Source of the DNA: Spirochaetia bacterium
GTDB lineage: Bacteria; Spirochaetota; Spirochaetia; UBA9216
Assembly (NCBI GenBank): GCA_965140585.1
Contig: OZ223269.1
Coordinates: forward strand, 544,001-608,000
Length of the DNA stretch: 64,000 nucleotides
Reading direction: 5' to 3'
Part shown: positions 27,202 through 50,782 of the stretch, in pieces
How the letters are laid out: each line of letters opens with the position of its first letter
Position numbering within the stretch: the first letter of the stretch is position 1
The notes under the pieces: generated by a model
The model's input: the letters and a program-made list of their open reading frames with translations, nothing else
Databases searched by the model: none
Told to the model about the DNA's origin: nothing
Program-made: the position numbers and the translations under genes

Positions 27202-28651
27202 ATTAATAATTCTGTTTATGATATTAGGCGCAGGGTCTTCTGTTTACGGAAGTGATTTTAATGATCTTATAGATGCTGCACTTACTTCTGATAATAAGCT
27301 TAAAGCAGCGCAGTCATCATACAGTTCGGCAATAGCCGGGGCAGCGGCTGAAAATCTGTCTACACTTCCAGGCCTGTCATTTACAACCGACAGTAATAGC
27401 CCCCTCTACAAATACAGTCTGGGTGAAGACTACTATTCATATCCGGTGGAGAGAAAACGAAAGCATACCGCCGGAGCAGGTCTTGCTCTGGATACACTCC
27501 TTCCCGGGGGAGGTCTGCTGAATCTCAGCGGAAGCGGCAGCCTTTTAATTTCTTCTCCAGCTGATGAAGAAACGCTGAGTTATTTCATAACTCCCTCAGC
27601 AGGATTGTATTTTAGGCAGCCGCTGTTTACCGACCGAAGTTCAGAATCTATGATACGATTTGACTCAATAAAGCTTGCCAGAGAATTAACAGTTTTAAGC
27701 GTCAATTCCGAAAGCCGGTCGGTACTAAATACTGAAAATGCTCTTGTTATATCGGTCTATTCTGCTGTTGTAAAAGCCCTGTCAATTAAAATGTCACTCG
27801 AAGTAATTGAACAGAGGATCGCAATTTCTGCTGATTCTCTAAAGCTTGCAGCTGAGGATGAAGCCTCAGGCAAAATAAGCAGGCTGGATTTTATTGCCGA
27901 AGAACTGTCGCTTAGAAGACTGGAAGATATCAGCAGAGAGCTGTCTTACCAGTATGAGGCGGCTTTACGTGATATAAAAAATATTACTGGAAATGAACTG
28001 GTAAAAATGCCTGAGCTTCCACTGATTAAACCTGATAAGACCATGCTGGCAGAACTTGAAGCGGAATTGTTCAGCGGAGCTGTACAGGTACAGGCAGCTT
28101 CTGAACTGAAAAGAATACTGGAAATTCAATCTGCGATTCTTCCTGACGGCACTGAGCCTGTTTTAGAAGTTACTGCAGTGATAAATCCAGGAAATACAGA
28201 TTCTGCCGATGATTTTTTTGAGGCATATGATAATCTTGGTGAAGCCGAATTAAACGCCCAGCTGACTGTAGCTCTTTCATTCGGCCTGATAGACTGGGGT
28301 GAGAATAAAAAAAGAAGAGAATCTGATAAAGCAGAAATTGAAGCTGCTCACTACCTTTTTGAAGATGCTCTAAGGCAGGTAAGTCTTTCATTTGAGAGTG
28401 GCCTGGATTCAATAAAGAATATAGACAGACAGCTTGAATTAATTGAAACGGAACTTGTCTATGATCTTGATCTGCTGGAAAGAGAAAAAAGCCGGGAGCA
28501 GGCTGGTCTTTCAACTTCGCTTGCAGTGAAGGCTGTAGAGCTTGATTACAATGAACAGCTGAATCAGAAGCAATTGCTCATGAATCAGAGGACTCTGGCG
28601 GTATTGAATCTCTACAATATTTCGGGCAGAAGGCTGGCTGAAATATTTTAG
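27191..28651 (+). CDS. TolC family outer-membrane efflux protein
   Basis: Signal peptide, repeated helical OEP pattern, position after MFP and RND genes. Confidence 0.82.
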   Translation: MRNKLIILFMILGAGSSVYGSDFNDLIDAALTSDNKLKAAQSSYSSAIAGAAAENLSTLPGLSFTTDSNSPLYKYSLGEDYYSYPVERKRKHTAGAGLALDTLLPGGGLLNLSGSGSLLISSPADEETLSYFITPSAGLYFRQPLFTDRSSESMIRFDSIKLARELTVLSVNSESRSVLNTENALVISVYSAVVKALSIKMSLEVIEQRIAISADSLKLAAEDEASGKISRLDFIAEELSLRRLEDISRELSYQYEAALRDIKNITGNELVKMPELPLIKPDKTMLAELEAELFSGAVQVQAASELKRILEIQSAILPDGTEPVLEVTAVINPGNTDSADDFFEAYDNLGEAELNAQLTVALSFGLIDWGENKKRRESDKAEIEAAHYLFEDALRQVSLSFESGLDSIKNIDRQLELIETELVYDLDLLEREKSREQAGLSTSLAVKAVELDYNEQLNQKQLLMNQRTLAVLNLYNISGRRLAEIF

Positions 28652-30318
28652 CCTTCTGTCTCTTTTATATATTTATTGATTTTGTTGGAAGCGGAAGGCT
28701 GGCTGATATTCAATTCTGCGGCTACACCTGTTGATGTACCGTGTTTTTTGTACGCATCAATTATCAGTCTTCGCTCTACTGATTCAAGAATATCTTTCAG
28801 GGAACTGCTGCTGCTTGCTGTATGAAAGATGCTGGCCTTGATTTTTGTAGGCAGCTGTTCTTCGCTTATCATGTAGTCATCGGAAGTGAGAATCATTCTT
28901 TCTATTAGATTCTCAAGTTCCCTGATATTACCCGGCCAGTCGTATTCGACAAGGTAGTCTATCACAGTTCCGGAAAGGGTTCTCTTGAGCCCGTACTTCT
29001 TTCCGATTACATTAACAAAATGATTGGCCAGAGTAAAAATATCTTCCTTCCTGTCTCTCAAACCGGGGATTTTAATGGTTATTACATTAAGCCGGTAATA
29101 AAGATCTTCCCTGAATGAACCCTCATGAACGAGTTTCTCCAGGTTCTTATTTGTAGCTGCGATAAGCCTGAAATCTACTTCCTTCAGGTTTGCTCCGCCG
29201 AGCCGTATAATTTTCTTTTCCTGGATTGCCTTCAAAAGCTTAACCTGCATGTGAAGCGGAAGATCTCCGATTTCATCAAGAAAGAGGGTTCCTTCGTTCG
29301 CAAGTTCAATCAGTCCGGGTTTGCCTTCTTTGCTGGCTCCACTGAATGCTCCCTTTTCATAACCGAATAGTTCCGATTCAAGTAGACTTTCGGGAATTGC
29401 CCCACAGTTTATTTCAATAAACGGGCCTTCACTTCTACCGCTTTGGGAATGCATAATCTTGGCGAACATTGTTTTACCGACACCTGATTCTCCAAGAAAA
29501 AGTACGTTGGCATCAAATCTGGAGATCTTGAGAAGAGTTGCTGATATATTTTTAATTACCTGTGAGCGGCCGATTATTGAAGGAACAGGATCACGATCAT
29601 TTCGCAGGCGGTCAATTTCGGCACTGTATAGTTTTAATGTATCTTCGAGGTTTTCGTATTCATCTTTAAGTGTCTGATATTTGGTTATGTCACGGGTATA
29701 GCTTACAACTTTTTCAATGTTTCCATCCTTGTCTTTTATCGGGATTGCGGTACACATAAGATATTTTCCTGCTCCGGTAAGCTGCAGGAGGGTTTCTGTA
29801 TTTCCGGATTTAAATACTCTGATGGCAACGGAAGGATTAAAAATCTTTTTCTCTTCCATTTCAAAAATTGTTTTTCCGATAGCTTCCTGTCTTGAGATTC
29901 CGTACATAGTCTCGAAATTGGGCATAGCGCTGACAATTACTCCATAGCGATCAATTATTACAAAGTCGTCATGAAGTACACTCAGCATATTAAGAAACTC
30001 ATCTTTCATTGACTGAATTGAGGATAGAGAAAAGGCGGCATCTTCAATATGTGTTGAATCAGAAATAAGACATAGCAGCAGCTCCTGCCCTGCAAGACTG
30101 TAGATATGTATTATAAACTCTTTATCTTTATAAATGAAAAGCAAAAACTCCTGATTCTTTTTTTCATCTCTTGTGCGGATAAGTTCTATAGTCTGTTCAA
30201 GAGAGTTGCCGTTGCTGAAAAAACTGGTAAAAGCCTGATTAGTTTTTATGAGCTGATATTCAGAATCCAGCAGAATTACCGGCTCGGTAAACAGGTTTAT
30301 ATCTATTCTTTCAGTCAA
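28648..30318 (-). CDS. PAS-domain sigma-54 enhancer-binding protein
   Basis: PAS region; Walker A GESGVGKT; ESELFGYEKGAFSGA; FLDEIG; FREDLYYRL; WPGNIREL; C-terminal HTH. Confidence 0.95.
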   Translation of the reverse strand: MTERIDINLFTEPVILLDSEYQLIKTNQAFTSFFSNGNSLEQTIELIRTRDEKKNQEFLLFIYKDKEFIIHIYSLAGQELLLCLISDSTHIEDAAFSLSSIQSMKDEFLNMLSVLHDDFVIIDRYGVIVSAMPNFETMYGISRQEAIGKTIFEMEEKKIFNPSVAIRVFKSGNTETLLQLTGAGKYLMCTAIPIKDKDGNIEKVVSYTRDITKYQTLKDEYENLEDTLKLYSAEIDRLRNDRDPVPSIIGRSQVIKNISATLLKISRFDANVLFLGESGVGKTMFAKIMHSQSGRSEGPFIEINCGAIPESLLESELFGYEKGAFSGASKEGKPGLIELANEGTLFLDEIGDLPLHMQVKLLKAIQEKKIIRLGGANLKEVDFRLIAATNKNLEKLVHEGSFREDLYYRLNVITIKIPGLRDRKEDIFTLANHFVNVIGKKYGLKRTLSGTVIDYLVEYDWPGNIRELENLIERMILTSDDYMISEEQLPTKIKASIFHTASSSSSLKDILESVERRLIIDAYKKHGTSTGVAAELNISQPSASNKINKYIKETEG

Positions 30319-30415
30319 AAAAATCCCTCCGTTGGTATATTAAGAATACCATAAAATAATAATTATTTTAATAGAGTATTACAAACTTAATACATTTAAA
30401 CTTAATAAATTATTT

Positions 30416-30540: not shown

Positions 30541-30558
30541 TTGGCATAAGAAATGCAT
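30541..30558 (+). promoter_or_regulatory. sigma-54 (-24/-12) promoter
   Basis: TTGGCATAAGAAATGCAT: GG (30543-44), 10 nt, GC (30555-56); divergent from an enhancer-binding protein gene. Confidence 0.85.
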
Positions 30559-30591
30559 TTAAATTGCAGAATAATAATTTGGAGAAATTAA

Positions 30592-31941
30592 TTGCTTAGA
30601 GAATCTTTACCAAAAATAATTACTGAACTGCCTGGACCTAAATCGAAGGCAGTAATTGAAAGAAGAAATAAAGCTATTCCGTCATCAATTGGATGTGCGG
30701 CGCCGTTTGTAATTGACAGGGGCGAAGGTGCTATGATAGTTGACCTTGACGGTAATATCATAATGGACTGGGTCGGAGGAATCGGCGCCCTGAATATCGG
30801 ATACAGCAATGAAGAGGTGGTTAAGGCTGTACAGGATCAGGCTGCAAGATACTTTCATCCGCAGATAAATACACTGCATTATTCAGAGTATATTGAACTT
30901 GCAGAATTGATAAACGATATTACTCCGGGTGATTACAAGAAAAGAACTGCATTTTTCAACAGCGGTTCTGAAGCAGTTGATAATGCAATAAAGATTGCCA
31001 GAAAGTTCAGCGGCAGGACTGATATAATTGCATATTCTGGATGCTTTCACGGCAGAACCTTTATGGCTATGACTCTAACAAGCGGTCAAGTGTATAAGGC
31101 CGGTTTTATGCCGCTTGCACCGGGTGTCCATCGTGCTGAATTTCCCAATACCTACAGGGCTGAACCCGGAATTCCGGAAGAGCAGCTTGCTGATTTTTAC
31201 CTAGAAAAGCTGCGGTATATGTTTGTTGACTATATTCTTCCTCAGAAAGTTGCTGCTGTAATTATTGAACCTATTCAGGGAGAGGGCGGTTTTATAGTTC
31301 CTCCCATTGAATACATAAAGGGGCTTAGAAAGCTTTGTGATGAATTCAAAATCCTCCTGATTGCAGATGAAGTTCAGACCGGCTACTGCAGAACTGGAAA
31401 AATGTTCGCTACAGAGTACTGGGAAGAAGCGGGTGTTTATCCTGATATTCTAATTACAGCCAAGGCTATGGGAGGAGGACTCCCGATAAGTGCTGTTACT
31501 GCAAGAGAAGAGATAATGGAATCTCTGACTGCAGGTGAAATAGGAGGTACTTACGGCGGAAACCCTGTTGCCTGTGCCTCCTCCTTAAAGGTCATCGAAA
31601 TACTAAAGAGAGACGACTATGCTTCCAAGGCCATGGCCATCGGCGAAAGATGTGAAGCTGCGTTCAAAGACTGGTTTGATAAATATAAGGCAATCGGAAC
31701 ATACCGTGTATCCGGTGCAATGGTTTCTCTTGAATTTGTAAAAGACCGGATTTCTAAAGAACCTGATCCTGAAACTGCAAATAAAATACTTGCAGAGTGC
31801 AGGATAGCCGGATTGGTTCTTAAGACAGCAGGTTCATATAATCAGATAGTAAGAGCTCTTATGCCGCTTGTTGTTACCGATGAGCAGCTTAAAGTTGGTC
31901 TTGAAATCCTTGAGAACGCGATAAAAGCAGTCACAGAATAA
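30592..31941 (+). CDS. Class III omega-aminotransferase (GabT/DavT-like)
   Basis: NSGSEAV, FHGRT, EPIQGEGG, DEVQTG, AKAMGGG and GTYGGNP motifs. Confidence 0.92.
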   Translation: MLRESLPKIITELPGPKSKAVIERRNKAIPSSIGCAAPFVIDRGEGAMIVDLDGNIIMDWVGGIGALNIGYSNEEVVKAVQDQAARYFHPQINTLHYSEYIELAELINDITPGDYKKRTAFFNSGSEAVDNAIKIARKFSGRTDIIAYSGCFHGRTFMAMTLTSGQVYKAGFMPLAPGVHRAEFPNTYRAEPGIPEEQLADFYLEKLRYMFVDYILPQKVAAVIIEPIQGEGGFIVPPIEYIKGLRKLCDEFKILLIADEVQTGYCRTGKMFATEYWEEAGVYPDILITAKAMGGGLPISAVTAREEIMESLTAGEIGGTYGGNPVACASSLKVIEILKRDDYASKAMAIGERCEAAFKDWFDKYKAIGTYRVSGAMVSLEFVKDRISKEPDPETANKILAECRIAGLVLKTAGSYNQIVRALMPLVVTDEQLKVGLEILENAIKAVTE

Positions 31942-31960
31942 GGAAAAGGAATAGCTTTAG

Positions 31961-33331
31961 ATGGAATTTGATGTAATTTCAGATATGGTGCAGAAGGCTT
32001 CTGCCGCACAGAAAAAACTGGAAACATGCTCACAGAAATACATAGATGAAATCGTGAAAGCTATTGCAAAAACTGTTTTTGACAATGCGGAAGTTCTGGC
32101 AAGCATGGCGGTTGATGAAACCTCCATGGGTATTTACGGCGATAAAGTCGAAAAGAACCGCCGAACTGCAAGTATGCTCTGGCACAGTCTCAAGGGGAAA
32201 AAGTCTGTAGGGGCTGTGGAAGAAGATGCGGTAAACGGAATCATAAAAATAGCAAAACCAATGGGTGTTGTGGGAGCGGTAACCCCCTGTACCAATCCAA
32301 TAACAACACCTATGTGTATTGCAATGTTTGCCGTGAAGGCGCGTAATTCTATAATCATCGCTCCTCATCCGCGTGCACGAAAATGCGCCGCATATACTGC
32401 TGAACTTATCAATATGAACCTTAAGACTCTTGGGGCACCCGAAAATCTTATACAGACAATAGAAGATCCTAATGTGCTTAAAAGCAGAGAGCTTATGAGC
32501 TCAGTTGATGTTGTTGTAGCCATCGGAGGCTCGGCCACAGTTAAAGCTGCATATTCCTGCGGTAAACCTGCATTCGGTGTCGGCGCAGGAAATGCGCAGT
32601 GCATTATTGACAGGGGAGTCTGTATAAGCGAATCGGTTGAGAAAATAATAAATGGAAGAATCTTTGACAACGGAATTATCAGTTCTGCTGAGCAAATGAT
32701 TCTCGTTCATAACGATGACTTTGCTGAAACAGTAAAAGAGCTTGAGTCTCAGGGTGCATACTTCGTCAGAAATTCTGATGAAGCTTTAAAACTCAGGAAT
32801 CTGATTTTTGATGAAGAAGGAAATGTTTCAAAAGAAGTAGTCGGCCAGCCTGTATCAAAGCTTGCTTATGATGCAGGTATTGAGCTTGAAGATAATGTTC
32901 GGCTTATAGTTATTGAAGTTTACGGCGCTGGAGAAGAGGAACTTTTCTGCAGAGAAAAGCTGTTTCCGGTAATTGGCCTTAAAAGATACGAAACCTTTGA
33001 AGAGGCAGTTGCAATCGCGGCTGAGAATATAGAAGCTGAAGGTATGGGGCATTCAGTAGTTATACATTCCGGAAATGATGAACATATCAGATATGCCGGT
33101 GAGAACCTGAACGTAAGCCGGCTTCTTGTGAATCAGGTCGGGGCTACCATGAGTGGCGGAAGCTATCTGAACGGCCTTGTTCCCACAACTATCTTCGGAT
33201 GCGGTACATGGGGGAACAATATTATCTCTGATAATTTTAATTACACACACTTGATGAATATTACACGAATTTCAACAGTGATAGATGGAGTTGTAATGCC
33301 CTCGGAAGAGGAGATCTGGGCTGATGTTTGA
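31961..33331 (+). CDS. CoA-acylating aldehyde dehydrogenase (SucD/EutE-like); catalytic Cys replaced by Ser
   Basis: PCTNP, APHP, GVGAGN, EKLFP, GH and GCGTWG motifs; FDNGIISSAEQ where the family has FDNGxxCxxEQ. Confidence 0.88.
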   Translation: MEFDVISDMVQKASAAQKKLETCSQKYIDEIVKAIAKTVFDNAEVLASMAVDETSMGIYGDKVEKNRRTASMLWHSLKGKKSVGAVEEDAVNGIIKIAKPMGVVGAVTPCTNPITTPMCIAMFAVKARNSIIIAPHPRARKCAAYTAELINMNLKTLGAPENLIQTIEDPNVLKSRELMSSVDVVVAIGGSATVKAAYSCGKPAFGVGAGNAQCIIDRGVCISESVEKIINGRIFDNGIISSAEQMILVHNDDFAETVKELESQGAYFVRNSDEALKLRNLIFDEEGNVSKEVVGQPVSKLAYDAGIELEDNVRLIVIEVYGAGEEELFCREKLFPVIGLKRYETFEEAVAIAAENIEAEGMGHSVVIHSGNDEHIRYAGENLNVSRLLVNQVGATMSGGSYLNGLVPTTIFGCGTWGNNIISDNFNYTHLMNITRISTVIDGVVMPSEEEIWADV

Positions 33332-34589
33332 GCTTAAATACGGCAGAAAAACTATCTCTGTTGATATACCTGAAAAAAATTATGTGGGAACGCTGATTCC
33401 CAATGAAATTGTACATAACAGAAGCGGCTTTGATGAAATAAATAATGCCCTTGATAATCCGGCAGGAACAGAAAGACTTGAGGAAATAGTTAAGCCTGGT
33501 GAGTCTGTAGTGATTGTTACAAGTGATATTACAAGGCCCTTTCCCGGGAGACTGGTTATACCGGAACTTGTTAAACGGCTTCACAGTGCAGGAGTCCGTG
33601 ACAGTGATATAACCATTGTTTTTGCACTCGGCAGTCACCGCAGTCATACTGAAGATGAAAAGAAATATCTGGCCGGTGAAGAAGTTTATTCAAGCGGAAT
33701 AAATCTGCTTGATTCCGAAATGAACTGCTGCATCAATCTCGGGGTGTGCAGGAACGGAACGCCTGTAGATATATTCAGGCCGGTAGCGGAAGCAGACAGA
33801 CTGATATGCGTGGGGAATATTGAATTTCACTATTTCGCAGGTTATTCCGGCGGGGCCAAAGCTTTGATGCCCGGAGTGTCAAGTCACGCAGCTATACAGG
33901 TCAACCATTCGAATATGACGAATAAAAATGCTGCAGCGGGCAGGCTTGATGATAATCCTGTCAGACAGGATATAGATCAGGTTGGTGAGTTTATCAAAAT
34001 TGATTTTATTCTGAACGTGATTCTTGATAATAAGAAAGAGATCGTTAAAGCAGTTGCAGGTCATTATCTTGAAGCTCACAGAAACGGCTGCAGGTATCTC
34101 GACCGGATGAACGGTGTTGAGCTTGCTTCAAAGGCTGATATTGTAATTGCATCTCCGGGGGGATATCCGAAAGATATAAATCTTTATCAGGCTCAAAAGG
34201 GACTTGACAATGCCAAATATGCTGTGGAAGACGGCGGCATAATTATTCTTGCAGCTTCAGCTGCAGAGGGTTTTGGCGAGAAAACCTTTGAATCATGGAT
34301 GAAGAATAAAAAACCATCAGAAATGCTGGTTGAAATTGAATCCAATTTTGTACTCGGAGGTCACAAGGCTGCCGCTATCTCCATGATATTGCAGAAGGCG
34401 GAAATATTCATGGTCAGTGATCTGGATGATGAAATTGTGAAGTCTATTAACTTCGTCCCTTTTAGTTCGCTGCAGGCTGCACTCGATGAGGCTGTCGGTA
34501 GAATTAGTGAGAAAGCTTCAGTGCTTTTGATGCCCGATGCAGGAGCTACAATACCATTACTGAAGGATGTCAGTGAAGATAAAGGTTAA
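33324..34589 (+). CDS. larA: Nickel-pincer-dependent lactate/2-hydroxyacid racemase family protein
   Basis: SDITRP, GSHR, HYFAGYSGGAK, NH and NLYQAQKG motifs. Confidence 0.92.
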   Translation: MFELKYGRKTISVDIPEKNYVGTLIPNEIVHNRSGFDEINNALDNPAGTERLEEIVKPGESVVIVTSDITRPFPGRLVIPELVKRLHSAGVRDSDITIVFALGSHRSHTEDEKKYLAGEEVYSSGINLLDSEMNCCINLGVCRNGTPVDIFRPVAEADRLICVGNIEFHYFAGYSGGAKALMPGVSSHAAIQVNHSNMTNKNAAAGRLDDNPVRQDIDQVGEFIKIDFILNVILDNKKEIVKAVAGHYLEAHRNGCRYLDRMNGVELASKADIVIASPGGYPKDINLYQAQKGLDNAKYAVEDGGIIILAASAAEGFGEKTFESWMKNKKPSEMLVEIESNFVLGGHKAAAISMILQKAEIFMVSDLDDEIVKSINFVPFSSLQAALDEAVGRISEKASVLLMPDAGATIPLLKDVSEDKG

Positions 34590-34812
34590 GCTTTATTCAT
34601 TTTTTGTATTCCTTTCCGGAAACAGGGAGGGAACTATGGAAATAGAAACAGATGATACTTTTTCTGTTCAGGAACTGCTTATGAAATGTGGTGTAAAAAA
34701 AGATTATACCGCTTTAATCAGAGTAAACGGTTTAAACAGAAATATTAACGATACAGATATTTTATCTGATGGAGACTTCGTGGAAGTTTTTCCGGTTTTT
34801 GGCGGTGGATGA
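34567..34812 (+). CDS. MoaD/ThiS family sulfur carrier
   Basis: 81 aa, VNG...L.DGD.VEVFP..GG C-terminus; adjacent to AOR. Confidence 0.88.
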   Translation: MSVKIKVKLYSFFVFLSGNREGTMEIETDDTFSVQELLMKCGVKKDYTALIRVNGLNRNINDTDILSDGDFVEVFPVFGGG

Positions 34813-36734: not shown

Positions 36735-36839
36735 GCAGATGATATAACGACCCTATAAAAGGAGGAGAAAAACGGAACTTAAAAATTAGGAAACAGAAGT
36801 ATTAACTTTTTTTAATAAATTTACTTGGAGGAATACAAG

Positions 36840-37940: not shown

Positions 37941-37949
37941 ATTATTGAA

Positions 37950-37972
37950 GCCGGCAGGATATTCCTGCCGGC
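37950..37972 (+). other. Intergenic stem-loop after dctP (mRNA stabiliser or partial terminator)
   Basis: GCCGGCAGGA-tat-TCCTGCCGGC perfect stem with no U tract. Confidence 0.6.
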
Positions 37973-38004
37973 ATATGTTTGAGAATTAAGAACAGGAGAA
38001 TCTT

Positions 38005-39777: not shown

Positions 39778-39787
39778 GGATTATTTA

Positions 39788-40441: not shown

Positions 40442-40455
40442 AACAGGAAACTAAA

Positions 40456-41613: not shown

Positions 41614-41634
41614 GATTTTACGGAGAATAATATT

Positions 41635-42459
41635 ATGAAGAAAAAAATGCCCGTAATGCTTACCTTTGATGTCGACGGAGAATCACTCTGGGCTTCCCGT
41701 GAGCTTGATCACCTTCCGGTTACACGCTCTCTGGGAACGTACGGTATTGTTGAGGGGCTTCCGAGAATAATGAAAGTTCTTGAAAGAAACGAAGTCCCGG
41801 CAACATTCTTTGTTCCCGGAATTATTGCTGAAAGGTATCCTGAGCAGATAAAGAAAATAGATACAGCCGGACATGAGATATGCAACCACAGCTACAGCCA
41901 TACATATCCGGACAAACTTCCTTCTGCTGATGCAGAAAAGGAAGAGCTTACAAAGACGAACGCGATACTTGAAAAGCTTACCGGAAAGACGCCTAAAGGA
42001 TATCGCTCTCCTGCGTGGGAGTTCAGTGAGAATACTCTGGATATCCTTCTTGATATAGGATTTGAGTATTCAAGCAACATGATGCATACAGATCGAATAG
42101 GATATCTGCAGGTGTTTGAGCGTAAGACTGATATCGTTGAACTTCCAATTCACTGGGTACTTGATGATGCTGCCTTCTGGCTGTACACAGTAAGGATTCC
42201 CGGAAAAGCGATACAGCCGGTTTCCGCTGTGCAGGAATTCTGGATTGCTGAATTTGATGCGCTTTATGAAGAGTTTATGGAAGAGGAAAATTCAGACATC
42301 TGTTTCATACTTACCTGCCATCCACAGGTGATCGGACGGCCTGCAAGAATGAAAGTTCTGGACAATCTTATTAAACATATAAAAACATTTGAGAATGTTG
42401 AATTTACTACATGCTGGCAGACAGCAGAGAAGTATAAAAAAGAGGGGACTGATGAGTAA
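41635..42459 (+). CDS. CE4 polysaccharide deacetylase-fold amidohydrolase (PuuE/HpPgdA-like)
   Basis: TFDVD, HSYSH, RSPAW and HPQVIGRP motifs; no signal peptide. Confidence 0.88.
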   Translation: MKKKMPVMLTFDVDGESLWASRELDHLPVTRSLGTYGIVEGLPRIMKVLERNEVPATFFVPGIIAERYPEQIKKIDTAGHEICNHSYSHTYPDKLPSADAEKEELTKTNAILEKLTGKTPKGYRSPAWEFSENTLDILLDIGFEYSSNMMHTDRIGYLQVFERKTDIVELPIHWVLDDAAFWLYTVRIPGKAIQPVSAVQEFWIAEFDALYEEFMEEENSDICFILTCHPQVIGRPARMKVLDNLIKHIKTFENVEFTTCWQTAEKYKKEGTDE

Positions 42460-43207
42460 AAATAATGCTGTTCTGCAGCTTTATCCGACAACCAAGCTGT
42501 ATCTCGCCCTGCTGATAGCTGTGTCTTCAGTAATTATTCCGAGCTACATTTATGCCTATTCCTGCTTTCTGATTGCAGCGGTAATTGCTGCAATGGCAGG
42601 CTGTCTGAGGGATTACCTTAAATTCTCCAGGAAATCTATTCTGATTCTGGTAATCCTGATTCTGGTAATGCAGATGTTCTTTTATCCGGGTGTGGATGAG
42701 GTATGGAGAAAGGGAATTTTCCGAATCACAAATGAAGGAATCCAGTTCGGGTTCAAGATGTCTTCGAGGGTTCTTGCGATAGCATGTTCTTTCGTTCTCT
42801 TTTTTAGAATTACTGAAGTAAAAGACTTTGTGCTTGCACTTGAGCAGAATGGATTTTCACCCACTGCAACCTATGTCATCCTGGCTACTCTGCAGATGAT
42901 TCCTGAAATGAAAAAACAGTCAACGGTTATCATGGATGCCCAGAGGGCAAGAGGTGTTGAAACCGAAGGCAGTCTGATGGTCAGAGTAAAGGCTTTTATT
43001 CCGATGCTTGGACCGCTTGTTCTTTCATCGATAGCCAATACCGAAGAAAGAGCTATCACTCTTGAATCACGGGCTTTTACCGCACCGGTTAAGAAAACTA
43101 GAATTCATAAAATCGAACTTACCAGGGCTGACAAGCCTCTCAAAGTTATCATGCTTATTATTCTTATAGGACTTATCGCAGGGAGGATTGCATTATGGCT
43201 CTTATAG
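42452..43207 (+). CDS. ECF transporter T component
   Basis: AQRARG and LESRAF conserved Arg motifs; start moved to ATG 42452. Confidence 0.9.
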   Translation: MSKNNAVLQLYPTTKLYLALLIAVSSVIIPSYIYAYSCFLIAAVIAAMAGCLRDYLKFSRKSILILVILILVMQMFFYPGVDEVWRKGIFRITNEGIQFGFKMSSRVLAIACSFVLFFRITEVKDFVLALEQNGFSPTATYVILATLQMIPEMKKQSTVIMDAQRARGVETEGSLMVRVKAFIPMLGPLVLSSIANTEERAITLESRAFTAPVKKTRIHKIELTRADKPLKVIMLIILIGLIAGRIALWLL

Positions 43208-44055
43208 AAGTTAAAAACCTGTCTTATAAATATCCGACCAGTAAAGGCGATGTTCTCAAGAACCTCAATTTTTCAATTGAAAAAGGCGAGTTCTGCTCAA
43301 TAATTGGATGCAACGGAAGCGGTAAAACAACACTGTGCAGTGCGTTAAGGGGATTTGTACCCAATTTTTACAAGGGTGAGCTGAACGGTCACATCATCCT
43401 GGACGGGCAGGATATGAGTGAGCTGAGCATGGGTGAGCTTGCTATGAAAATCGGCTATGTATTTCAGAATCCATTTATTCAGATCAGCGGTATTAAAAGT
43501 ACAGTTTTTGAAGAAGTAGCATACGGACTTGAGAATCTTGGTGTTGATCCGGAGGAGATTAATACACGTGTAGAAAAGATGTTCGAGTTCCTGCAGATTG
43601 AATATTTAAAAGACAAAGATCCCTTTGCTCTTTCCGGCGGACAAAAGCAGCGTGTAGCGCTTGCTTCCATCCTTGTAATGGAACCTGATGTTCTTGTAAT
43701 TGACGAACCCACCTCACAGCTTGATCCAATCGGAACCGAAGAGGTATTTCAGACTATCAAGCTTATGAAAGAAATGGGTAAAACAATCATACTTGTTGAA
43801 CACAAGATTGAGCTGGTTGCTGAGTACTCTGATCATATTATTCTTCTTGATGATGGCGAGATTGTAATGGACGGACCTGCTAAGGCTGTTCTTTCAAATG
43901 AGAAAGTTCTTGAGCATAATACTGCCATCCCACAGTTTGCACAGCTTTGTCTTGCGCTCAAAAACAGCGGTCTGCCTGTAGATGATATAGCGATCACGGA
44001 AGATGAATGCATAAACGTGATGGAAAAAATACTGACAAAAGAGGCTGTACTGTGA
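43195..44055 (+). CDS. ECF transporter ATPase A1
   Basis: GCNGSGKT, FQNP, LSGGQKQR and DEPT motifs. Confidence 0.93.
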   Translation: MALIEVKNLSYKYPTSKGDVLKNLNFSIEKGEFCSIIGCNGSGKTTLCSALRGFVPNFYKGELNGHIILDGQDMSELSMGELAMKIGYVFQNPFIQISGIKSTVFEEVAYGLENLGVDPEEINTRVEKMFEFLQIEYLKDKDPFALSGGQKQRVALASILVMEPDVLVIDEPTSQLDPIGTEEVFQTIKLMKEMGKTIILVEHKIELVAEYSDHIILLDDGEIVMDGPAKAVLSNEKVLEHNTAIPQFAQLCLALKNSGLPVDDIAITEDECINVMEKILTKEAVL

Positions 44056-44873
44056 GTTTTATTGAACTGAAGAATGTAACTTTTACATATCCAAATGATT
44101 TTACTGCGATTGAGAATATAAATCTTGAAATAGCCAAAGGTGAATTCCTGGCAATAGTCGGTCAGAACGGAGCAGGGAAGACAACTACTGTTAAGCTGAT
44201 GAATGGACTTTTAAAACCGCAGGAAGGAGAAGTCATTATTGACGGATGGAACACTAACGATCATACAGTTGCTAAGCTTTCCTCAAAAGTAGGGTATATC
44301 TTTCAGAATCCGGATGAGCAGATTTTTAACGATTCAATTTACAGTGAAGTTGCATTTGGTCCAAAGTATATGAAACTTCCGATTGAAGAGATTAAGAATC
44401 GAGTACGGACAGCTGTTGATGTTACAAAAATACGCCCGTATTTAAATGAAAATCCATATAACCTGCCTTATTCTACAAGAAAGTTTGTAACAATTGCCGC
44501 AATTATGGCGAATGACCCGGATGTACTCATCCTTGATGAACCGACTGCCGGCCAGGACCTCTATGGTATGGAAGTTCTGGCAGATGTCTTAAAGTTTCTC
44601 AAGGAGCAGGGGAAGACTGTCATAACCATTACACATGATATGGAGTTCGTTGTAAAGAATTTTGAAAGGGTGGTCGTAATGGCCAACAAGAAAATCATTT
44701 CAGATTCCGATCGTAGAACAACCTTCTGGAACCATGATGTTTTAAAGCAGAGTATGCTAAAGCAGCCCTATGTCAGCAGAGTCGCCTATCGAATGGGTCT
44801 GTCCGGTAATGTTCTTGATGTTAATGAAATGATCAGTGCTGTTAAAACTGAAACAGGATTAAAGGAAGCATAA
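44052..44873 (+). CDS. ECF transporter ATPase A2
   Basis: GQNGAGKT, FQNPDEQ, degenerate signature LPYSTRK, DEPTAGQD; start moved to GTG 44052. Confidence 0.92.
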   Translation: MSFIELKNVTFTYPNDFTAIENINLEIAKGEFLAIVGQNGAGKTTTVKLMNGLLKPQEGEVIIDGWNTNDHTVAKLSSKVGYIFQNPDEQIFNDSIYSEVAFGPKYMKLPIEEIKNRVRTAVDVTKIRPYLNENPYNLPYSTRKFVTIAAIMANDPDVLILDEPTAGQDLYGMEVLADVLKFLKEQGKTVITITHDMEFVVKNFERVVVMANKKIISDSDRRTTFWNHDVLKQSMLKQPYVSRVAYRMGLSGNVLDVNEMISAVKTETGLKEA

Positions 44874-45820
44874 TGGCAACACCGATAATTTTTGACTGTG
44901 ATCCGGGACATGATGATGCTGTAGCATTATTCATAGCTCTGGCAAATGATGCTATAGAAGTTAAAGGTATAACTACCTGTGCAGGTAATCAGCTTCCTGA
45001 AAAAACTTTTAACAACGCAAGAAAACTTCTGGCGCTTGCTGAAAGGGAAGATATTACCGTATGCCCCGGTGCTGAAAAACCGCTGACAAGGAACCTCCGG
45101 ATAGCTGCTGATATTCACGGTGATTCAGGGCTTGACGGAGCCGAACTTCCTGAACCGACCGTGGCAGAGTTTAAGGGAAAATCCTGGGACTTTACTGCAG
45201 ATATTATACGGAATCATCCGGAACCAATTACTCTGGTTGCAACCGGTCCGCTTACTAATGTCGCTATTTTTCTTCTTGCTTATCCGGAATTAAAAGAAAA
45301 ACTTGAACGGATAATCATTATGGGCGGTGCCTGCTTTGGAGGGAATATCACTCCGGCTGCAGAGTTTAATATTCTTGTAGATCCTGAAGCGGCTGATATT
45401 GTTTTCAAAAGCGGTGTAAAAGTTTCAATGTTCGGACTTGATGTTACAAACCGGGCCAGTATGATGCCTGATGAAATTAAGTCACTCCGGAACCTTGGTA
45501 CAAAATCCGGAGAAATATTCGCCGGTCTACTTGATTTCTTTATCACCAAGGCTACCAGATATTTTCTGGCGGATAAGGACTGGGTAGAAGGTGTACACCT
45601 TCATGATGCCTGCTGCATGGCTTATATTGTCGATCCTTCAATCTTTAGAATGGTTGACTGCCATGTTGAAATAGATACAAACGACGGACCGACTCTGGGC
45701 AGTACAGTTGTTGATTTCAACGGTGTAACAAAAAAGCCTGCAAATGCAGAAGTAGCTTTTAAAATTGACAGAGATAAGTTTATAGGTCTGGTTATAAAAT
45801 CGATAGCCAAATTCAATTAG
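44873..45820 (+). CDS. Nucleoside hydrolase (RihA/RihC-like)
   Basis: DCDPGHDD, HGDSG, TGPLTN, AEFN..DP and LHD motifs. Confidence 0.93.
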   Translation: MATPIIFDCDPGHDDAVALFIALANDAIEVKGITTCAGNQLPEKTFNNARKLLALAEREDITVCPGAEKPLTRNLRIAADIHGDSGLDGAELPEPTVAEFKGKSWDFTADIIRNHPEPITLVATGPLTNVAIFLLAYPELKEKLERIIIMGGACFGGNITPAAEFNILVDPEAADIVFKSGVKVSMFGLDVTNRASMMPDEIKSLRNLGTKSGEIFAGLLDFFITKATRYFLADKDWVEGVHLHDACCMAYIVDPSIFRMVDCHVEIDTNDGPTLGSTVVDFNGVTKKPANAEVAFKIDRDKFIGLVIKSIAKFN

Positions 45821-45874
45821 TCATGGTTATAAATGTCCATACGGGGCATTAAATATATAACAAGGAGAAATTAA

Positions 45875-46498
45875 ATGGAAAAGAAAAGAAGTTTCAAGGA
45901 TGACTTCACCCTGGTTTCACTGCTGCTTATTCCAGTATGTGTTGCTATCAACATTGTAGGATTTCAGCTTGCCCAGCTGCTGAGACTCCCTGTGTTTCTT
46001 GATGTAATCGGAACAATACTAGTAGGTATTGTTGCCGGTCCCTGGATTGCTATCATTACCGGTTTTCTGACCAATGCTATCAATGCAATTTTTAATCCTG
46101 TATACCTGCCTTACTCAGTTGTAAACATGGCAATCGGTATCTTCGCTGCTCTGCTTTCTGCCAAAGGCATGATGGGCAAATGGTGGAAGATTGGTATTTC
46201 AGGTGTAATTATCGCTCTTGTAGCTACATGTACTGCCGCTCCCATCACTGTAATACTTTTTGGTGGAATGACAGGACATGCAACTTCAATGATTACTGCT
46301 GGATTCCTCGCTACAGGAACCAAGATCTGGACTGCTGTATTTTCTACCCACTTTATTACTGAAAGCGCAGACAAGATTCTCAGTCTCATTGTTGCTGTTC
46401 TTATTGTTAAAAGAATATCCAGCAGATACCTGTCAAAACTTAAATACGGTGAACAGTATATTAAGGAAGATAAAGTCGCTGAAGCTGCAGATATTTAA
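45875..46498 (+). CDS. ECF transporter S (substrate-binding) component
   Basis: About six TM segments; LRLPVFLDVIGT...GP and ADK motifs. Confidence 0.85.
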   Translation: MEKKRSFKDDFTLVSLLLIPVCVAINIVGFQLAQLLRLPVFLDVIGTILVGIVAGPWIAIITGFLTNAINAIFNPVYLPYSVVNMAIGIFAALLSAKGMMGKWWKIGISGVIIALVATCTAAPITVILFGGMTGHATSMITAGFLATGTKIWTAVFSTHFITESADKILSLIVAVLIVKRISSRYLSKLKYGEQYIKEDKVAEAADI

Positions 46499-46517
46499 TC
46501 TGCCGGATATTATTAGA

Positions 46518-46546
46518 CTGGTATTCAGCTGTAACTGAATACCGGC
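46518..46546 (+). terminator. Stem-loop after the ECF S-component gene
   Basis: GGTATTCAG-loop-CTGAATACC stem. Confidence 0.55.
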
Positions 46547-46604
46547 TAATAATTTATAACCATTCAAGTCTCTAATCAAGATTTAAATTGTAAATTGGAC
46601 AAAT

Positions 46605-47786
46605 ATGAAACAATTTTCTACACTTCTTAAAACATGGCCGGCTTCAGGTATACGTGAAATGCTTGATATGTACCGGCAATATCCGGATGCCGTTAATATG
46701 TGTAACGGGGATCCGGATCTGCCTACTCCTGAACATATAGTGGAGGCAGCTGTAAAATCACTTCGGGACGGAAATACCCAATATTCCACGGAATCCGGAA
46801 TTGTTGAGCTGCGGGAAGCTGTAGCTGCAAAGTATGTTAATCAGTTCGGTTTCGATTTTACTCCCGAGAATGTCATGGCTACTGCAGGCAGCATCGAAGC
46901 AATGTTTATTATTCTTGCAGGGATTCTTGACAGCGGAGATGAGGTAATAGTTTCAGATCCCAGCTACACCAGCTATGAAGGGCAGGTAAGAATGTTCGGC
47001 GGCCGTGTTGTTCGTGTCAAAGCTCCTGCTGAAAACGGGTTTTTGATGAATCCTGAGGAAATTGCCGAAAAAATAACCGGGAAAACTCGGGCGGTAATAC
47101 TTAATTATCCAAATAATCCATCAGGTACGCTTATCGATAACGAATATTGTGATAGGCTGGCAAACGCACTTGAAGGCCGCGATGTTCTGATTATTTCGGA
47201 TGAAGTATATGAAAAGATAGTCTTCGACGGAAAAACTCATTACAGTCCTATGCAGCATCCGCAATTAAAAGAAAAGGTTTTGATAGCAAACAGTCTTTCT
47301 AAAACCTATGCAATGACCGGTTGGCGGCTTGGATATATTCTTGGAAGCGGTAATTTAGTTTCAGGATTTTATAAAATGCAGCAGGCTCTTATCTCATGTC
47401 TGCCGATATTTGTACAGCATGCCGGTGTTGCCGCACTTAATGGTTCCCAGGATTGTGTTGAGCAGATGCGCAGGGAATACGAGCGCCGGCGAAATATTAT
47501 CTGTAATAAATTCGACTCCATCGAAAATCTTGATTATATTAAGTCCGGAGGCTCACTCGGAATAATGGCTGATATTAGAAAAACAGGAATCAGTTCGAGA
47601 GACTTTTCATTGAAACTGCTTTCGGAAGGCGGTGTCCTGACAGTTCCGGGTACTGCATTCGGTAAGGGAGCAGAAGGCTGGATAAGACTTGCTTTTGCAA
47701 ATTCAGCAGAAACCATGACTGCAGGGGCTGAAAGGTTTTCAGAATATTTTAACAACAATTTGAACTTCAGGGGTAATGATGCATAA
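46605..47786 (+). CDS. Class I/II PLP aminotransferase
   Basis: NYPNNPSG, SDEVY and SLSKTYAMTGWRLG motifs. Confidence 0.93.
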   Translation: MKQFSTLLKTWPASGIREMLDMYRQYPDAVNMCNGDPDLPTPEHIVEAAVKSLRDGNTQYSTESGIVELREAVAAKYVNQFGFDFTPENVMATAGSIEAMFIILAGILDSGDEVIVSDPSYTSYEGQVRMFGGRVVRVKAPAENGFLMNPEEIAEKITGKTRAVILNYPNNPSGTLIDNEYCDRLANALEGRDVLIISDEVYEKIVFDGKTHYSPMQHPQLKEKVLIANSLSKTYAMTGWRLGYILGSGNLVSGFYKMQQALISCLPIFVQHAGVAALNGSQDCVEQMRREYERRRNIICNKFDSIENLDYIKSGGSLGIMADIRKTGISSRDFSLKLLSEGGVLTVPGTAFGKGAEGWIRLAFANSAETMTAGAERFSEYFNNNLNFRGNDA

Positions 47787-48732
47787 CAAACCGGTAGTGG
47801 TATTTACATTTCCCTATGGAAAGGAAAACTTCCTTAAAATAGAGCAGGAAGGTTATGAAGTCGTATATATTAATGAAGAAAAGATGACAGGAGATGAAAT
47901 GCCTGAAAATACTGAAGTTCTTGTATGCTATGATCCATTTGCTAAAGTAGATATAAGTAAACTTGATAAGTTGAAGTTTATTCAATTGGTCAGTAAAGGA
48001 ATCAACCAGGCTCCCCGTGAAAAAATAAAGAATGCAGGTATTATTGTTGCGAATAACGGCAACGCAACATCTATTCCAATTGCTGAATGGATTATCACAA
48101 TGATACTTATGCTGCTTAAGAATTCTTCATTCATATATAAAAATATGAATGATAAAATATGGAATGAAGACCGGAATATATCCGAGCTTGCAGGTAAGAG
48201 AGTAATCATCCTTGGGACAGGCGGAATTGCAATTGAAGCTGCCTCAAGACTGAAAGCTTTCGGAGTTGAAATTACAGGGATTAATAGGAGCGGAAGAGCT
48301 GTTGCCGGTTTTAATCGATGCTGCAGTCTGGATCAGTTTAATAATCTTCTTCCTGAATGTGATATTCTTGTTTCTGCTATTCCTGCGACTTCCGAGACTA
48401 AAAATCTTATTAACAAGAAAACACTGTCGCTATTGAAGAAAGATGCCTGCTTTATAAATATTTCCAGAGGTTCAGTAGTAAATGAGGATGATCTGATTGA
48501 GAAGCTCAACGACGGCTCGCTTAGAGGTGCCTCTCTAGATGTATTTAAACAGGAACCGCTGTCTTCAGACAGTCCATTATGGGATGCTGCTAATATTATA
48601 ATCACACCTCACAATTCTTACCTGTCAGATGCCTATCGAAATAGGGTATTTGAAGTAATATTTAAAAATCTAAAAAAATACAAGTCCGGAAAAACGCTTG
48701 ATTTTGTAGTTGACTTTGAAAAAGGCTACTAG
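47776..48732 (+). CDS. D-2-hydroxyacid dehydrogenase
   Basis: LGTGGIA, INISRG, DVFKQEPL and ITPH motifs. Confidence 0.92.
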   Translation: MMHNKPVVVFTFPYGKENFLKIEQEGYEVVYINEEKMTGDEMPENTEVLVCYDPFAKVDISKLDKLKFIQLVSKGINQAPREKIKNAGIIVANNGNATSIPIAEWIITMILMLLKNSSFIYKNMNDKIWNEDRNISELAGKRVIILGTGGIAIEAASRLKAFGVEITGINRSGRAVAGFNRCCSLDQFNNLLPECDILVSAIPATSETKNLINKKTLSLLKKDACFINISRGSVVNEDDLIEKLNDGSLRGASLDVFKQEPLSSDSPLWDAANIIITPHNSYLSDAYRNRVFEVIFKNLKKYKSGKTLDFVVDFEKGY

Positions 48733-50768: not shown

Positions 50769-50782
50769 TAAACTGGGGAAAG

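Follow-up and report, generated by a model that had tools for sequence, protein, structure and literature searches.

Closest described systems

The reductive uric-acid cluster (XdhD, YgfK/UacX, SsnA, HyuA, YgeW/UacY, YgeY, plus YgeX) sets a precedent in anaerobes, in which, as described in the portions of PMC12507026 that cover it, a flavin reductase is followed by cyclic amidohydrolases, a ureido-cleaving M20 enzyme, and a pyridoxal phosphate enzyme. Here, we compare this and other known systems with an 18-gene cluster and its divergent regulator in a Spirochaetia bacterium (genome G000; 4.85 Mb in 10 contigs, 98.5% complete). The cluster lies in a 64,000-nt stretch (G000:C6:544001-608000), hereafter the window, whose own numbering is used unless a contig or another locus is named. 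In order, its genes encode a class III aminotransferase (AT3), a CoA-acylating aldehyde dehydrogenase (aALDH), LarA, a MoaD/ThiS-like small protein, an aldehyde:ferredoxin oxidoreductase (AOR), a tripartite ATP-independent periplasmic (TRAP) transporter (DctP, DctQ, and DctM), an iron-sulfur flavoprotein (Flav), an M20 metallohydrolase (M20), a CE4-fold amidohydrolase (CE4), the T, A, and A' components of an energy-coupling factor (ECF) transporter (EcfT, EcfA, and EcfA'), a nucleoside hydrolase (NH), the ECF substrate-capture component (EcfS), a class I aminotransferase (AT1), and a D-2-hydroxyacid dehydrogenase (HADH). We read the cluster as a mosaic catabolic operon under sigma-54 and a PAS-type activator, the separable modules of which would act together on one imported riboside, a reading on which our own confidence is about evenly balanced.

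The window cluster resembles the uric-acid system in its apparent dedication to the anaerobic catabolism of a nitrogen compound, in the enzyme logic outlined in PMC12507026, and in an M20 protein scoring 204 bits on the YgeY model (below the cut-off). However, Xdh, SsnA, HyuA, YgeW, and YgeX were all absent from it in Pfam and NCBIfam searches. We rejected the cluster as a reductive uric-acid pathway because these marker enzymes are missing and G000 holds a separate copy of that pathway at C6:745-757 kb. The latter region (L184, G000:C6:744000-763900) carries a C. difficile-type cluster with a PALP enzyme, a YgeY exceeding its model cut-off (476 bits), a DHO_dh-type reductase, an SsnA-like hydrolase, XdhA/XdhC, and a HyuA-type hydantoinase; the M20 protein of this true YgeY locus is only 27% identical to that of the window. 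On gene content, the G000 spirochaete looks like an anaerobic purine degrader.

The reductive pyrimidine (Pyd) pathway is made up of PydA to PydE. Taken with its beta-alanine extension (as set out in part of PMC7332683), it is similar to the window cluster in that a pyrimidine-type nucleoside hydrolase acts upstream and a GabT-family transaminase is followed by an aldehyde-oxidising enzyme. Unlike Pyd, the 19 genes of the locus encode neither a DHO_dh-type dihydropyrimidine dehydrogenase nor an amidohydrolase-family dihydropyrimidinase, nor yet a nitrilase- or AmaB-type ureidopropionase, their places being taken by the Isf-like flavoprotein, CE4, and an ArgE/DapE-type M20. A canonical Pyd pathway was rejected, since PydA, PydB, and PydC are missing from the cluster and a canonical dihydropyrimidinase (516 bits) lies outside it. 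That gene (58626-60005, minus strand) encodes a canonical dihydropyrimidinase/D-hydantoinase exceeding the TIGR02033 cut-off and stands alone, 10 kb downstream of the cluster and on the opposite strand, its neighbours being frames without any family match.

Three further systems invite comparison. The nearest relatives of AT3 and aALDH are genuine GabT and SucD-type enzymes, as in the 4-aminobutyrate (GABA) shunt or succinate-semialdehyde route, but both fall below the NCBIfam equivalog cut-offs and belong to a larger operon that also encodes amide hydrolases and an importer for ribosides. The QueK-QrtT-QueL system of C. difficile pairs an ECF S component with a dedicated IU-family nucleoside hydrolase, as stated in the relevant part of PMC11477304. 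Finally, among LarA proteins, Mar2 is an experimentally characterised malate racemase (PMC7583248, in part); according to sections of PMC11770544, malate racemases form the largest LarA group and epimerise tartrate too, and LarB, LarE, and LarC make the nickel-pincer cofactor.

A first-pass annotation, made from the sequence without database searches, had recognised no described pathway in the cluster. We likewise found none matching it in the literature on ECF/nucleoside-hydrolase clusters, sigma-54 regulons, CD3073, reductive pyrimidine degradation, anaerobic ectoine degradation, and queuosine. The portions consulted of a survey of Clostridiales sigma-54 regulons (PMC6615313) contain no passage on these families. 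The cluster appears to be a new combination of known enzyme families around a conserved, uncharacterised core.

A predicted sigma-54-dependent operon

The open reading frame listing places a minus-strand gene of 556 aa ahead of a 273-nt spacer and 18 plus-strand genes (30592-48732). This agrees in count and coordinates with the initial description of 18 co-directional, mostly tightly packed genes divergent from a PAS activator, and Pfam confirmed every gene family named in it (Table 1). Ten of the gene junctions overlap or abut and five have spacers of 10-54 nt, most being below 25 nt. The widest are AOR-DctP (90 nt, at 36.8 kb), DctP-DctQ (64 nt, 38.0 kb), and EcfS-AT1 (106 nt, 46.5 kb), the three junctions that had been singled out as such, followed by NH-EcfS (54 nt). 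Overlaps also cross the borders between modules, as at aALDH/LarA (8 nt), CE4/EcfT, and EcfA'/NH. Each cluster gene is single-copy in G000, the closest paralogues being at most 54% identical (tblastn, at the thresholds used). Collectively, the common strand and the sigma-54 promoter described below lead us to regard the 18 genes as a real predicted operon, with separable modules around an uncharacterised amide-hydrolase core.

Table 1. Features of the predicted operon and of its control region in the window.
Feature	Position	Strand	Pfam families	Further evidence
Sigma-54 enhancer-binding protein (PAS sensor, AAA+ sigma-54 interaction domain, HTH)	28648-30318	-	PAS (PAS_9), Sigma54_activat 226 bits, HTH (HTH_50)	
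-24/-12 (sigma-54) element TGGCATaagaaATGCA	30542-30557	+		GG/GC register kept; position conserved in relatives
AT3, class III aminotransferase, GabT-like (4-aminobutyrate-type omega-transaminase)	30592-31941	+	Aminotran_3 385 bits	
aALDH, CoA-acylating aldehyde dehydrogenase, SucD-like (succinate-semialdehyde dehydrogenase type)	31961-33331	+	Aldedh	
LarA-family Ni-pincer 2-hydroxyacid racemase, malate racemase type	33324-34589	+	Lar_N/LarA_C	NF052593 544 bits (equivalog cut-off 500)
MoaD/ThiS-like small protein	34567-34812	+	ThiS/MoaD-like (ThiS 26 bits)	NCBIfam MoaD and ThiS below cut-offs
AOR, aldehyde:ferredoxin oxidoreductase family (tungsto/molybdopterin)	34809-36734	+	AFOR_N 258 bits, AFOR_C 348 bits	
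TRAP transporter	36825-39777 (DctP 36825-37940, DctQ 38005-38496, DctM 38497-39777)	+	DctP, DctQ, DctM	
Flav, Isf-like iron-sulfur flavoprotein, FMN_red fold with N-terminal Cys cluster	39788-40441	+	FMN_red 103 bits	
M20 metallohydrolase, ArgE/DapE-family deacylase	40456-41613	+	Peptidase_M20	TIGR01910 289 bits (cut-off 218)
CE4-fold amidohydrolase, HP0310/PuuE-like branch, conserved-core marker	41635-42459	+	Polysacc_deac_1 89 bits	
ECF transporter components T, A, A'	42389-44873 (EcfT 42389-43207, EcfA 43195-44055, EcfA' 44007-44873)	+	CbiQ (EcfT), two ABC_tran	
NH, IU-type nucleoside hydrolase, RihA-like (pyrimidine-type)	44873-45820	+	IU_nuc_hydro 330 bits	
EcfS, ECF S (substrate-capture) component, nearest uncharacterised CD3073 family	45875-46498	+	ECF_trnsprt	NF045596 113 bits (cut-off 180)
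Long hairpin in EcfS-AT1 spacer, 19 bp	46509-46553	+		Spacer fold -26.9 kcal/mol, z -4.45
AT1, class I aminotransferase (Asp/aromatic-AT-like)	46605-47786	+	Aminotran_1_2 215 bits	
HADH, D-isomer-specific 2-hydroxyacid dehydrogenase	47776-48732	+	2-Hacid_dh (2-Hacid_dh_C 176 bits)	

The sigma-54 consensus reads TGGCAC-N5-TTGCW. The element upstream of AT3, TGGCATaagaaATGCA, shows two departures from it with the GG/GC register intact; a strict search (at most one mismatch) missed it and returned one unrelated site against 2.96 expected by chance. Such a motif would prove nothing by itself, and the case rests on conservation. In two related loci, L084 (genome G044, another family of the class) and L085 (genome G010, same family), the elements TGGCACggtgtTTGCA (0 departures) and TGGCACacaaaGTGCA (one departure), respectively, keep the same GG/GC register and the same distance from the first gene, in promoter spacers that have otherwise diverged between the window and these loci. 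In an Oscillospiraceae locus (L007), TGGCATaaaatTTGCT, with one departure, lies between a sigma-54 activator and the CE4 gene. Because register and position are conserved in L084, L085, and L007, we take the site to be real, and sigma-54 control of the cluster, as first proposed from the -24/-12 promoter, appears well supported. Indeed, G000 has one rpoN gene (Sigma54_DBD, contig C7). With up to two departures allowed and GG/GC fixed, the whole window holds four candidates; none falls in the internal spacers of the cluster, and one, at 40402, lies inside the flavoprotein gene.

The activator itself matches PrdR as top NCBIfam model (426 bits, below the cut-off of 795), and its orthologues occupy the same divergent position in L084 (75% identity) and L085 (72%). 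An inverted repeat, TGGTAT-N7-10-ATACCA, was seen by eye near the activator gene start, both in the window (30330-30355) and in the spacer between the activator gene and AT3 in L084 (L084:8110-8140); it is a candidate upstream activator-binding site.

Folding of the wide spacers revealed a 10-bp GC-rich hairpin between DctP and DctQ (37950-37972; -22.6 kcal/mol, z -4.7) and the longer one between EcfS and AT1, while the AOR-DctP spacer gave no significant structure (z -0.1). In L084, too, the EcfS-AT1 spacer folds into a comparable hairpin, with a U-rich tract after it (z -3.47). The EcfS-AT1 hairpin is a possible terminator, attenuator, or processing site, and both hairpins of the window could attenuate transcription. 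Since such a strong hairpin precedes AT1 in the window and in L084, the AT1-HADH pair may be attenuated or separately expressed. The string CTGCCGGATAT directly follows the EcfS stop codon in the window (46499-46515) and in L084 (L084:17874-17890), and the related CTGCCGGCATAT is part of the dctP hairpin (37950-37975); the two may represent a shared small repeat or recognition element. Scans of the window for sigma-70 promoters and terminators gave counts close to those of shuffled sequences and were uninformative except for the dctP hairpin. At gathering score, Rfam returned no riboswitch in the window and none, preQ1 or other, that would name a ligand in 11 related loci; the sole match was a glycine riboswitch in one Clostridia locus (L179), far from its ECF genes.

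Conservation reveals a mosaic around a CE4/M20 core

Conservation was assessed by tblastn of 20 window proteins against related loci, with CE4 as the marker and eight informative loci. CE4 scans of genome and metagenome collections yielded at least four and at least two close loci, respectively; two metagenome contigs were too short to use. Across genomes CE4 is rare: of 61 close relatives, six have an orthologue, G000 included (E <= 1e-30). The nearest public relative among the matches listed, a Spirochaetia metagenome-assembled genome (MAG) of the same genus (L004; CE4 97% identical), is colinear from aALDH to the hemerythrin gene downstream of the cluster at 85-100% identity and has 17 of the 18 genes, its stretch beginning after AT3. 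L085 keeps the gene order of the window from the activator as far as CE4, at which point the contig stops (60-93% identity). In L084, the order is activator-AT3-aALDH-Flav-M20-CE4-EcfT-EcfA-EcfA'-NH-EcfS-AT1-HADH; LarA-MoaD-AOR-DctPQM is absent, a 71-nt spacer standing in its place, and a different TRAP system lies beyond the activator.

More distant loci share fewer genes. A Treponema MAG (L005) has a PucR regulator, an M20 (43%), a polar amino-acid ABC transporter, a second M20 (56%), AT3 (52%), an AT1-like gene (32%), and CE4 (57%), followed by EcfS, EcfT, EcfA, EcfA', NH (37%), a PfkB kinase, a PP-loop protein, and a TRAP/TAXI system. The Oscillibacter locus (L006) combines a LysR regulator, CE4 (55%), AT1 (49%), Flav (59%), a Na:alanine symporter, and a CbiA-like gene with a 2-oxoacid:ferredoxin oxidoreductase, an acetate-kinase-family protein, PduL, and an M20 (26%). 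L007 holds two sigma-54 activators, CE4 (53%), M20 (28%), Flav (67%), and an SSF symporter, with AT1-like, Fe-ADH, and saccharopine-dehydrogenase-like genes nearby, and in L087 an M20 (37%) adjoins CE4 (45%). L006 and L007 thus carry symporters where the spirochaete clusters have ECF-NH; Flav neighbours CE4 in both, as does AT1 in L006. Loci of a group of CE4 proteins at about 35% identity (L008-L018 and L091-L107) share almost no window genes, as judged by tblastn of L008-L018. What recurs outside the spirochaetes appears to be only CE4, M20, and a class I aminotransferase, joined by Flav in the two Oscillospiraceae loci. We therefore regard CE4, M20, and the class I aminotransferase, usually with Flav, as the likely invariant core, and the 18 genes as a mosaic rather than one conserved unit.

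CE4 is closest among solved structures to HP0310 'PgdA' (3qbu, E 3.5e-40), a M. smegmatis deacetylase (3rxz, E 9e-39), and the PuuE allantoinase (E 9e-19). Versions of five sequence motifs are visible in it, which we take to be the named motifs of the CE4 family, and it seems to belong to the CE4 branch acting on small or cyclic amides. Public data hold more than 120 protein clusters of this family at >=50% identity, none informatively named. M20 passes the ArgE/DapE deacylase model, its best solved relative being DapE (7uoi, E 2e-38). The translation of Flav contains a compact C-x2-C-x2-CC...C cluster, presumably an Fe-S flavoprotein motif, and only weak WrbA-type relatives have been solved.

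A portable ECF-nucleoside hydrolase module

T, A, A', and S genes are encoded together in the cluster and are all single-copy (tblastn), as in a dedicated, group I-like ECF transporter. EcfA and EcfA' have ECF_ATPase_1/2 as their top NCBIfam models, below the cut-offs. EcfS matches the CD3073 model alone and below its cut-off, which indicates the nearest named family and not membership. NH scores 382 bits on the RihA model (cut-off 433), short of the RihA equivalog level, and its best solved relatives are RihA enzymes (E 1.6e-90). Its alignment with their structures is full-length and contains a 4-residue insertion near the aglycone pocket, in a helix that presumably lines the base pocket.

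To place this module, EcfS was searched in 400 Clostridia genomes (E <= 1e-15; one genome unscored) and 13 neighbourhoods were compared. Matches were obtained in 25 of the 400, six of them at 41-46% identity. All six close loci (L170-L175) have EcfS-EcfT-EcfA-EcfA' with NH, which is adjacent in five and 4.6 kb off in L175; L170 and L171 lie near a contig end, so that one flank is short. Among the seven weaker loci, T/A/A' genes occur in L179 only and NH in none; L181 shows weak AT1-like matches and L176 an activator-like match. Capsule genes and a GNAT gene border the module in L172. The L175 module includes a PRAI-family (phosphoribosylanthranilate-isomerase-like) protein and a PfkB kinase along with an Fe-ADH and an MFS protein, and faces a LacI-PfkB fusion (L175:5421-7071, minus strand, and L175:10408-12420, plus strand). 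The gene content of L175 hints that the imported compound may be an N-ribosylamine that is phosphorylated and then rearranged, and the PfkB kinases beside ECF-NH in other loci point to a use for the ribose.

Trees of the module proteins were quick maximum-likelihood, unrooted reconstructions with SH-aLRT support only, from a small sample (11 rows for EcfA1 and EcfS, 10 for NH). The ECF proteins of the Treponema cluster group with those of L175 (SH-aLRT 97-99; identities of 59% for EcfA, 66% for EcfS, and 59% for EcfT), and those of the window, L004, and L084 with L170-L174 and L171 (SH-aLRT 83-88; EcfA about 53%); the window NH groups with that of L175 (support 95, 55% identity). The ECF modules of the two spirochaete cluster types therefore belong to different sublineages and differ in gene order, yet both come directly after CE4. 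This would reflect either two separate recruitments of the module or an old association that was kept. Since either history argues for function, the adjacency of ECF-NH to CE4, M20, AT3, and AT1 favours a real functional link. The link between riboside import and hydrolysis and the amide hydrolases, drawn in the first-pass annotation from the window alone, thus recurs in a second, diverged spirochaete cluster.

The pairing of an S component with a dedicated nucleoside hydrolase in QueK-QrtT-QueL (PMC11477304, in the part that describes it) raises the idea that ECF-NH serves cofactor or queuosine-type salvage and merely sits inside a catabolic operon. We consider this extremely improbable: the cluster has neither QueL nor any other gene of a radical-SAM family (Pfam), the Rfam scans detected no preQ1 or other riboswitch in the window or the 11 related loci, the S component belongs elsewhere (matching CD3073 only), NH is nearest to the pyrimidine-specific RihA, and the module brings its own T, A, and A' genes into a catabolic setting, with the neighbouring PfkB kinases of other loci pointing to ribose use. 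On the absence of radical-SAM families from the cluster and of riboswitches from the window, queuosine salvage as such was also rejected.

One imported riboside or independent modules

From the gene families, synteny, promoter, and modular history, which were read directly from the loci, we infer a route whose substrates and step order are all conditional. The dedicated ECF transporter with its CD3073-type S component would import a riboside, which the RihA-like NH would split into ribose and an aglycone. The core of CE4 and the ArgE/DapE-type M20 would then degrade the aglycone or, in other bacteria, a free compound imported by a symporter, in most versions helped by the Isf-like Fe-S flavoprotein as reductase or electron carrier. 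An omega-amino acid of the GABA or beta-alanine type thus released would be converted to the aldehyde by the GabT-like AT3 and to the acyl-CoA by the SucD-like aALDH, while an alpha-amino acid would yield a 2-oxoacid through AT1, to be reduced by HADH as a redox sink. Through LarA(Mar)-MoaD-AOR-DctPQM, a 2-hydroxy-dicarboxylate (most likely malate) would in addition be taken up and racemised, and an aldehyde would be oxidised in a ferredoxin-linked reaction.

The top NCBIfam models for AT3 are GABA transaminases (474 bits, cut-off 676, short of the GabT equivalog level), its best solved relatives are GabT enzymes (E 2.5e-103), and it matches acetylornithine and diaminobutyrate transaminase models too. 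The best solved relative of aALDH is 8cei, a 'succinate-semialdehyde dehydrogenase (acetylating)' (E 2.5e-140); NCBIfam acylating aldehyde dehydrogenase models stayed below their cut-offs, and no SucD-specific model was among the matches. An amine-to-aldehyde-to-acid arm ending in AOR had been proposed at first. Its transaminase and dehydrogenase steps hold as amine to aldehyde to acyl-CoA, and AOR, absent from L084, looks like a dispensable add-on. On the alpha-amino side, AT1 has the P. horikoshii aromatic and aspartate aminotransferases as best solved relatives (E 5e-76), archaeal and Thermus-type enzymes being closest, and the top NCBIfam model for HADH is D-2-hydroxyacid dehydrogenase, below its cut-off.

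As to the substrate class, our best guess is a pyrimidine-like or ureide/N-acyl-bearing riboside. A pyrimidine-like or ureide aglycone is ranked first because the urate-pathway M20 of the same broad group cleaves a ureido group once the ring has been reductively dearomatised and hydrolysed; an N-acyl or cyclic amino-acid-like compound would fit the amino-acid-type importers of the non-spirochaete loci equally well. For orotate, hydantoin, lactam, polyamine, pantothenate, and modified-nucleoside (acp3U, t6A) substrates, the sequence speaks neither for nor against. A more specific version is, in our judgement, unlikely. It would have Flav, CE4, and M20, together with the CD3073-type ECF transporter and the RihA-like NH, form a hitherto undescribed route for degrading a pyrimidine-type (and possibly modified) riboside anaerobically, in which non-homologous enzymes replace dihydropyrimidine dehydrogenase, dihydropyrimidinase, and ureidopropionase, the omega-amino acid passes to acyl-CoA through the GabT- and SucD-like enzymes, and LarA works without LarB, LarC, and LarE through an unknown cofactor route or salvage.

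A number of observations weigh against a shared substrate. The comparative sample is small: searches for CE4 orthologues came up empty in 400 further genomes from the phylum, in 400 from the order of the Oscillibacter hit, and in 300 from the family of the Treponema hit. Flav, the SucD-like enzyme, and HADH are missing from the Treponema locus and AT3 and NH from the Oscillospiraceae loci (tblastn). None of the 13 Clostridia ECF loci has a CE4, M20, AT3, Flav, or HADH homologue in the stretches compared, nor was AT1 detected in those of the six close ones; because it stands alone in all six, ECF-NH appears to be a self-contained unit for riboside uptake and hydrolysis. aALDH, AT1, and HADH are only 54-57% identical between the window and L084 (AT1 and HADH 55-57%), as against 75-88% for the other ten proteins. 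Given this far greater divergence, the cluster edges seem to have a different history or looser constraint, and AT1-HADH may be a separate unit. Moreover, GabT and SucD alone make up an ordinary GABA-to-succinyl-CoA route, and the cluster enzymes include no established heterocycle reductase.

Several of these findings agree with the possibility that the activator merely co-regulates chemically independent modules, with no single substrate passing through all of them: a GABA-type shunt; ECF/NH for ribose; CE4/M20 and then AT1/HADH, which would deacylate small peptides or amino acids bearing N-acyl groups; and a system that takes up and racemises malate, together with AOR. Besides the solitary ECF-NH of the six Clostridia loci, a seven-gene block is dispensable in L084, GabT and SucD are near enzymes with known stand-alone roles, AT1-HADH lies behind a hairpin at a different level of divergence, and G000 has another class III aminotransferase adjoining an acylating aldehyde dehydrogenase (C6:684-687 kb). 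This possibility is, however, hard to square with CE4, M20, AT3, and AT1 adjoining ECF-NH in two diverged spirochaete clusters that use ECF modules of different sublineages, with gene overlaps that run across module borders, and with a single conserved sigma-54 promoter and none inside the cluster; we hold it as the main, though tentative and somewhat doubtful, alternative. The same evidence bears on the original proposal of one coherent 18-gene pathway, which was not supported by the comparison: L084 lacks LarA-MoaD-AOR-TRAP, ECF-NH stands alone in Clostridia, and AT1-HADH is more diverged and follows a conserved hairpin. Lack of conservation as a unit, named beforehand as grounds for abandoning that proposal, was seen in part, in that the seven-gene block and ECF-NH are separable while CE4/M20/AT3/AT1 occur with ECF-NH in the two diverged clusters.

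Another possible function is to break down a diamino acid that is either N-acylated or cyclic (ectoine-like, or N-acetyl-diaminobutyrate/ornithine-like) and is imported by the TRAP transporter, the riboside module being unrelated; the aerobic ectoine route offers an analogy. CE4 would open or deacylate the compound, AT3 would take the omega-amine, the SucD-like enzyme or AOR would oxidise the aldehyde, M20 would remove the N-acyl group, and AT1, HADH, and the malate racemase would lead from aspartate to malate. The ArgE/DapE deacylase assignment of M20, the matches of AT3 to acetylornithine and diaminobutyrate transaminase models, an Asp-AT-like AT1, a LarA of the malate racemase type, and the amino-acid-type importers of other loci (polar amino-acid ABC, Na:alanine symporter, SSF) are all consistent with such a function. 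Yet neither TRAP nor LarA occurs in L084 or in any of the more distant loci, Flav, the best-conserved CE4 partner outside spirochaetes (59-67%), would have no role, the recurrent ECF-NH adjacency would go unexplained, and nothing relevant was found in the literature on anaerobic ectoine degradation, which renders it quite improbable.

Should the modules share one substrate, as in the imported-riboside reading that we prefer, the cluster would represent a new anaerobic catabolic route and provide a first function for the HP0310-type CE4 branch, its Isf-like flavoprotein, and the CD3073-type ECF-plus-hydrolase module. The loci also illustrate how such an operon may be built, a core being extended by a plug-in importer/hydrolase module and by a racemase/AOR/TRAP block.

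The LarA-MoaD-AOR-TRAP block and its nickel cofactor

Because LarA and AOR are missing from the otherwise colinear L084, we regard them as lineage-specific additions and not as integral steps of an arm. The LarA-MoaD-AOR-TRAP genes appear to be an insertion specific to the family of the window, placed between the SucD-like and flavoprotein genes, and the W and Ni enzymes are predicted add-ons to the core. The MoaD/ThiS-like gene has no paralogue in G000. Eight AOR-family genes and 13 DctM-like matches were counted in this genome (at the thresholds used), which points to a heavy reliance on tungsto/molybdopterin aldehyde oxidoreductases and organic-acid uptake.

LarA keeps the residues aligned with H108, H174, K184, and H200 of L. 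plantarum LarA, which we take to be the catalytic His pair, the Lys tethering the nickel-pincer nucleotide (NPN), and the Ni-binding His. Its best solved relative is Mar2 (6d6z, E 8.6e-118), which it resembles in passing the LarAH6-family malate racemase equivalog model and in retaining catalytic and cofactor-binding residues (PMC7583248, in the part on Mar2). Unlike the Mar2/LarAH6 system, it is inserted beside MoaD-AOR and TRAP genes, in a genome where no LarB, LarC, or LarE was detected. Specifically, G000 gave no LarC (PF01969) match, a best LarE (TIGR00268) score of 32 bits against a cut-off of 150, and a single AIRC-domain gene, a 149-aa frame of PurE size. LarC is present in G044, which belongs to another family; neither this LarC nor the unannotated 249-aa frame after it had a tblastn match in G000. 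Within the family of the window, LarC was found in none of five genomes (G000 and its four sisters G001, G010, G007, a single contig, and G004, at 100% completeness), although each of the five gave strong matches to LarA, a single genome holding as many as five strong homologues; G000 itself has seven Lar_N matches, four of them full-length. The sections consulted of PMC11770544 hold no discussion of LarA without LarB, LarC, and LarE. Either these proteins draw on an unknown cofactor supply or they may not be active as racemases here. The occurrence of several LarA proteins without detectable LarB, LarC, or LarE raises a direct question about the prevailing model for how the nickel-pincer cofactor is supplied. 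It also casts doubt on the D-to-L step assigned to LarA in the alpha-amino arm of the first-pass annotation, the substrate of which would most probably be malate, as no NPN-cofactor genes were found.

Flanking genes

The genes on either side of the cluster are unrelated to it. Upstream lies an RND efflux system (HlyD, AcrB, and OEP), and downstream lie hemerythrin, GT4/sucrose-phosphate-synthase-like and phosphatase-like genes, a KDG-type kinase, and an IclR regulator. The GT4 glycosyltransferase (in 49413-52855, plus strand) has sucrose-phosphate synthase and MshA as nearest models, and the 690-aa protein after it, in the same stretch, has an N-terminus like sucrose-phosphate phosphatase; both score below the equivalog cut-offs. 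Elsewhere in the window (20088-21935, minus strand), a protein of 615 aa carries an HMGL-like domain (aldolase/carboxylase-type) and, at its C-terminus, a dCache/PDC sensor, an unusual pairing.

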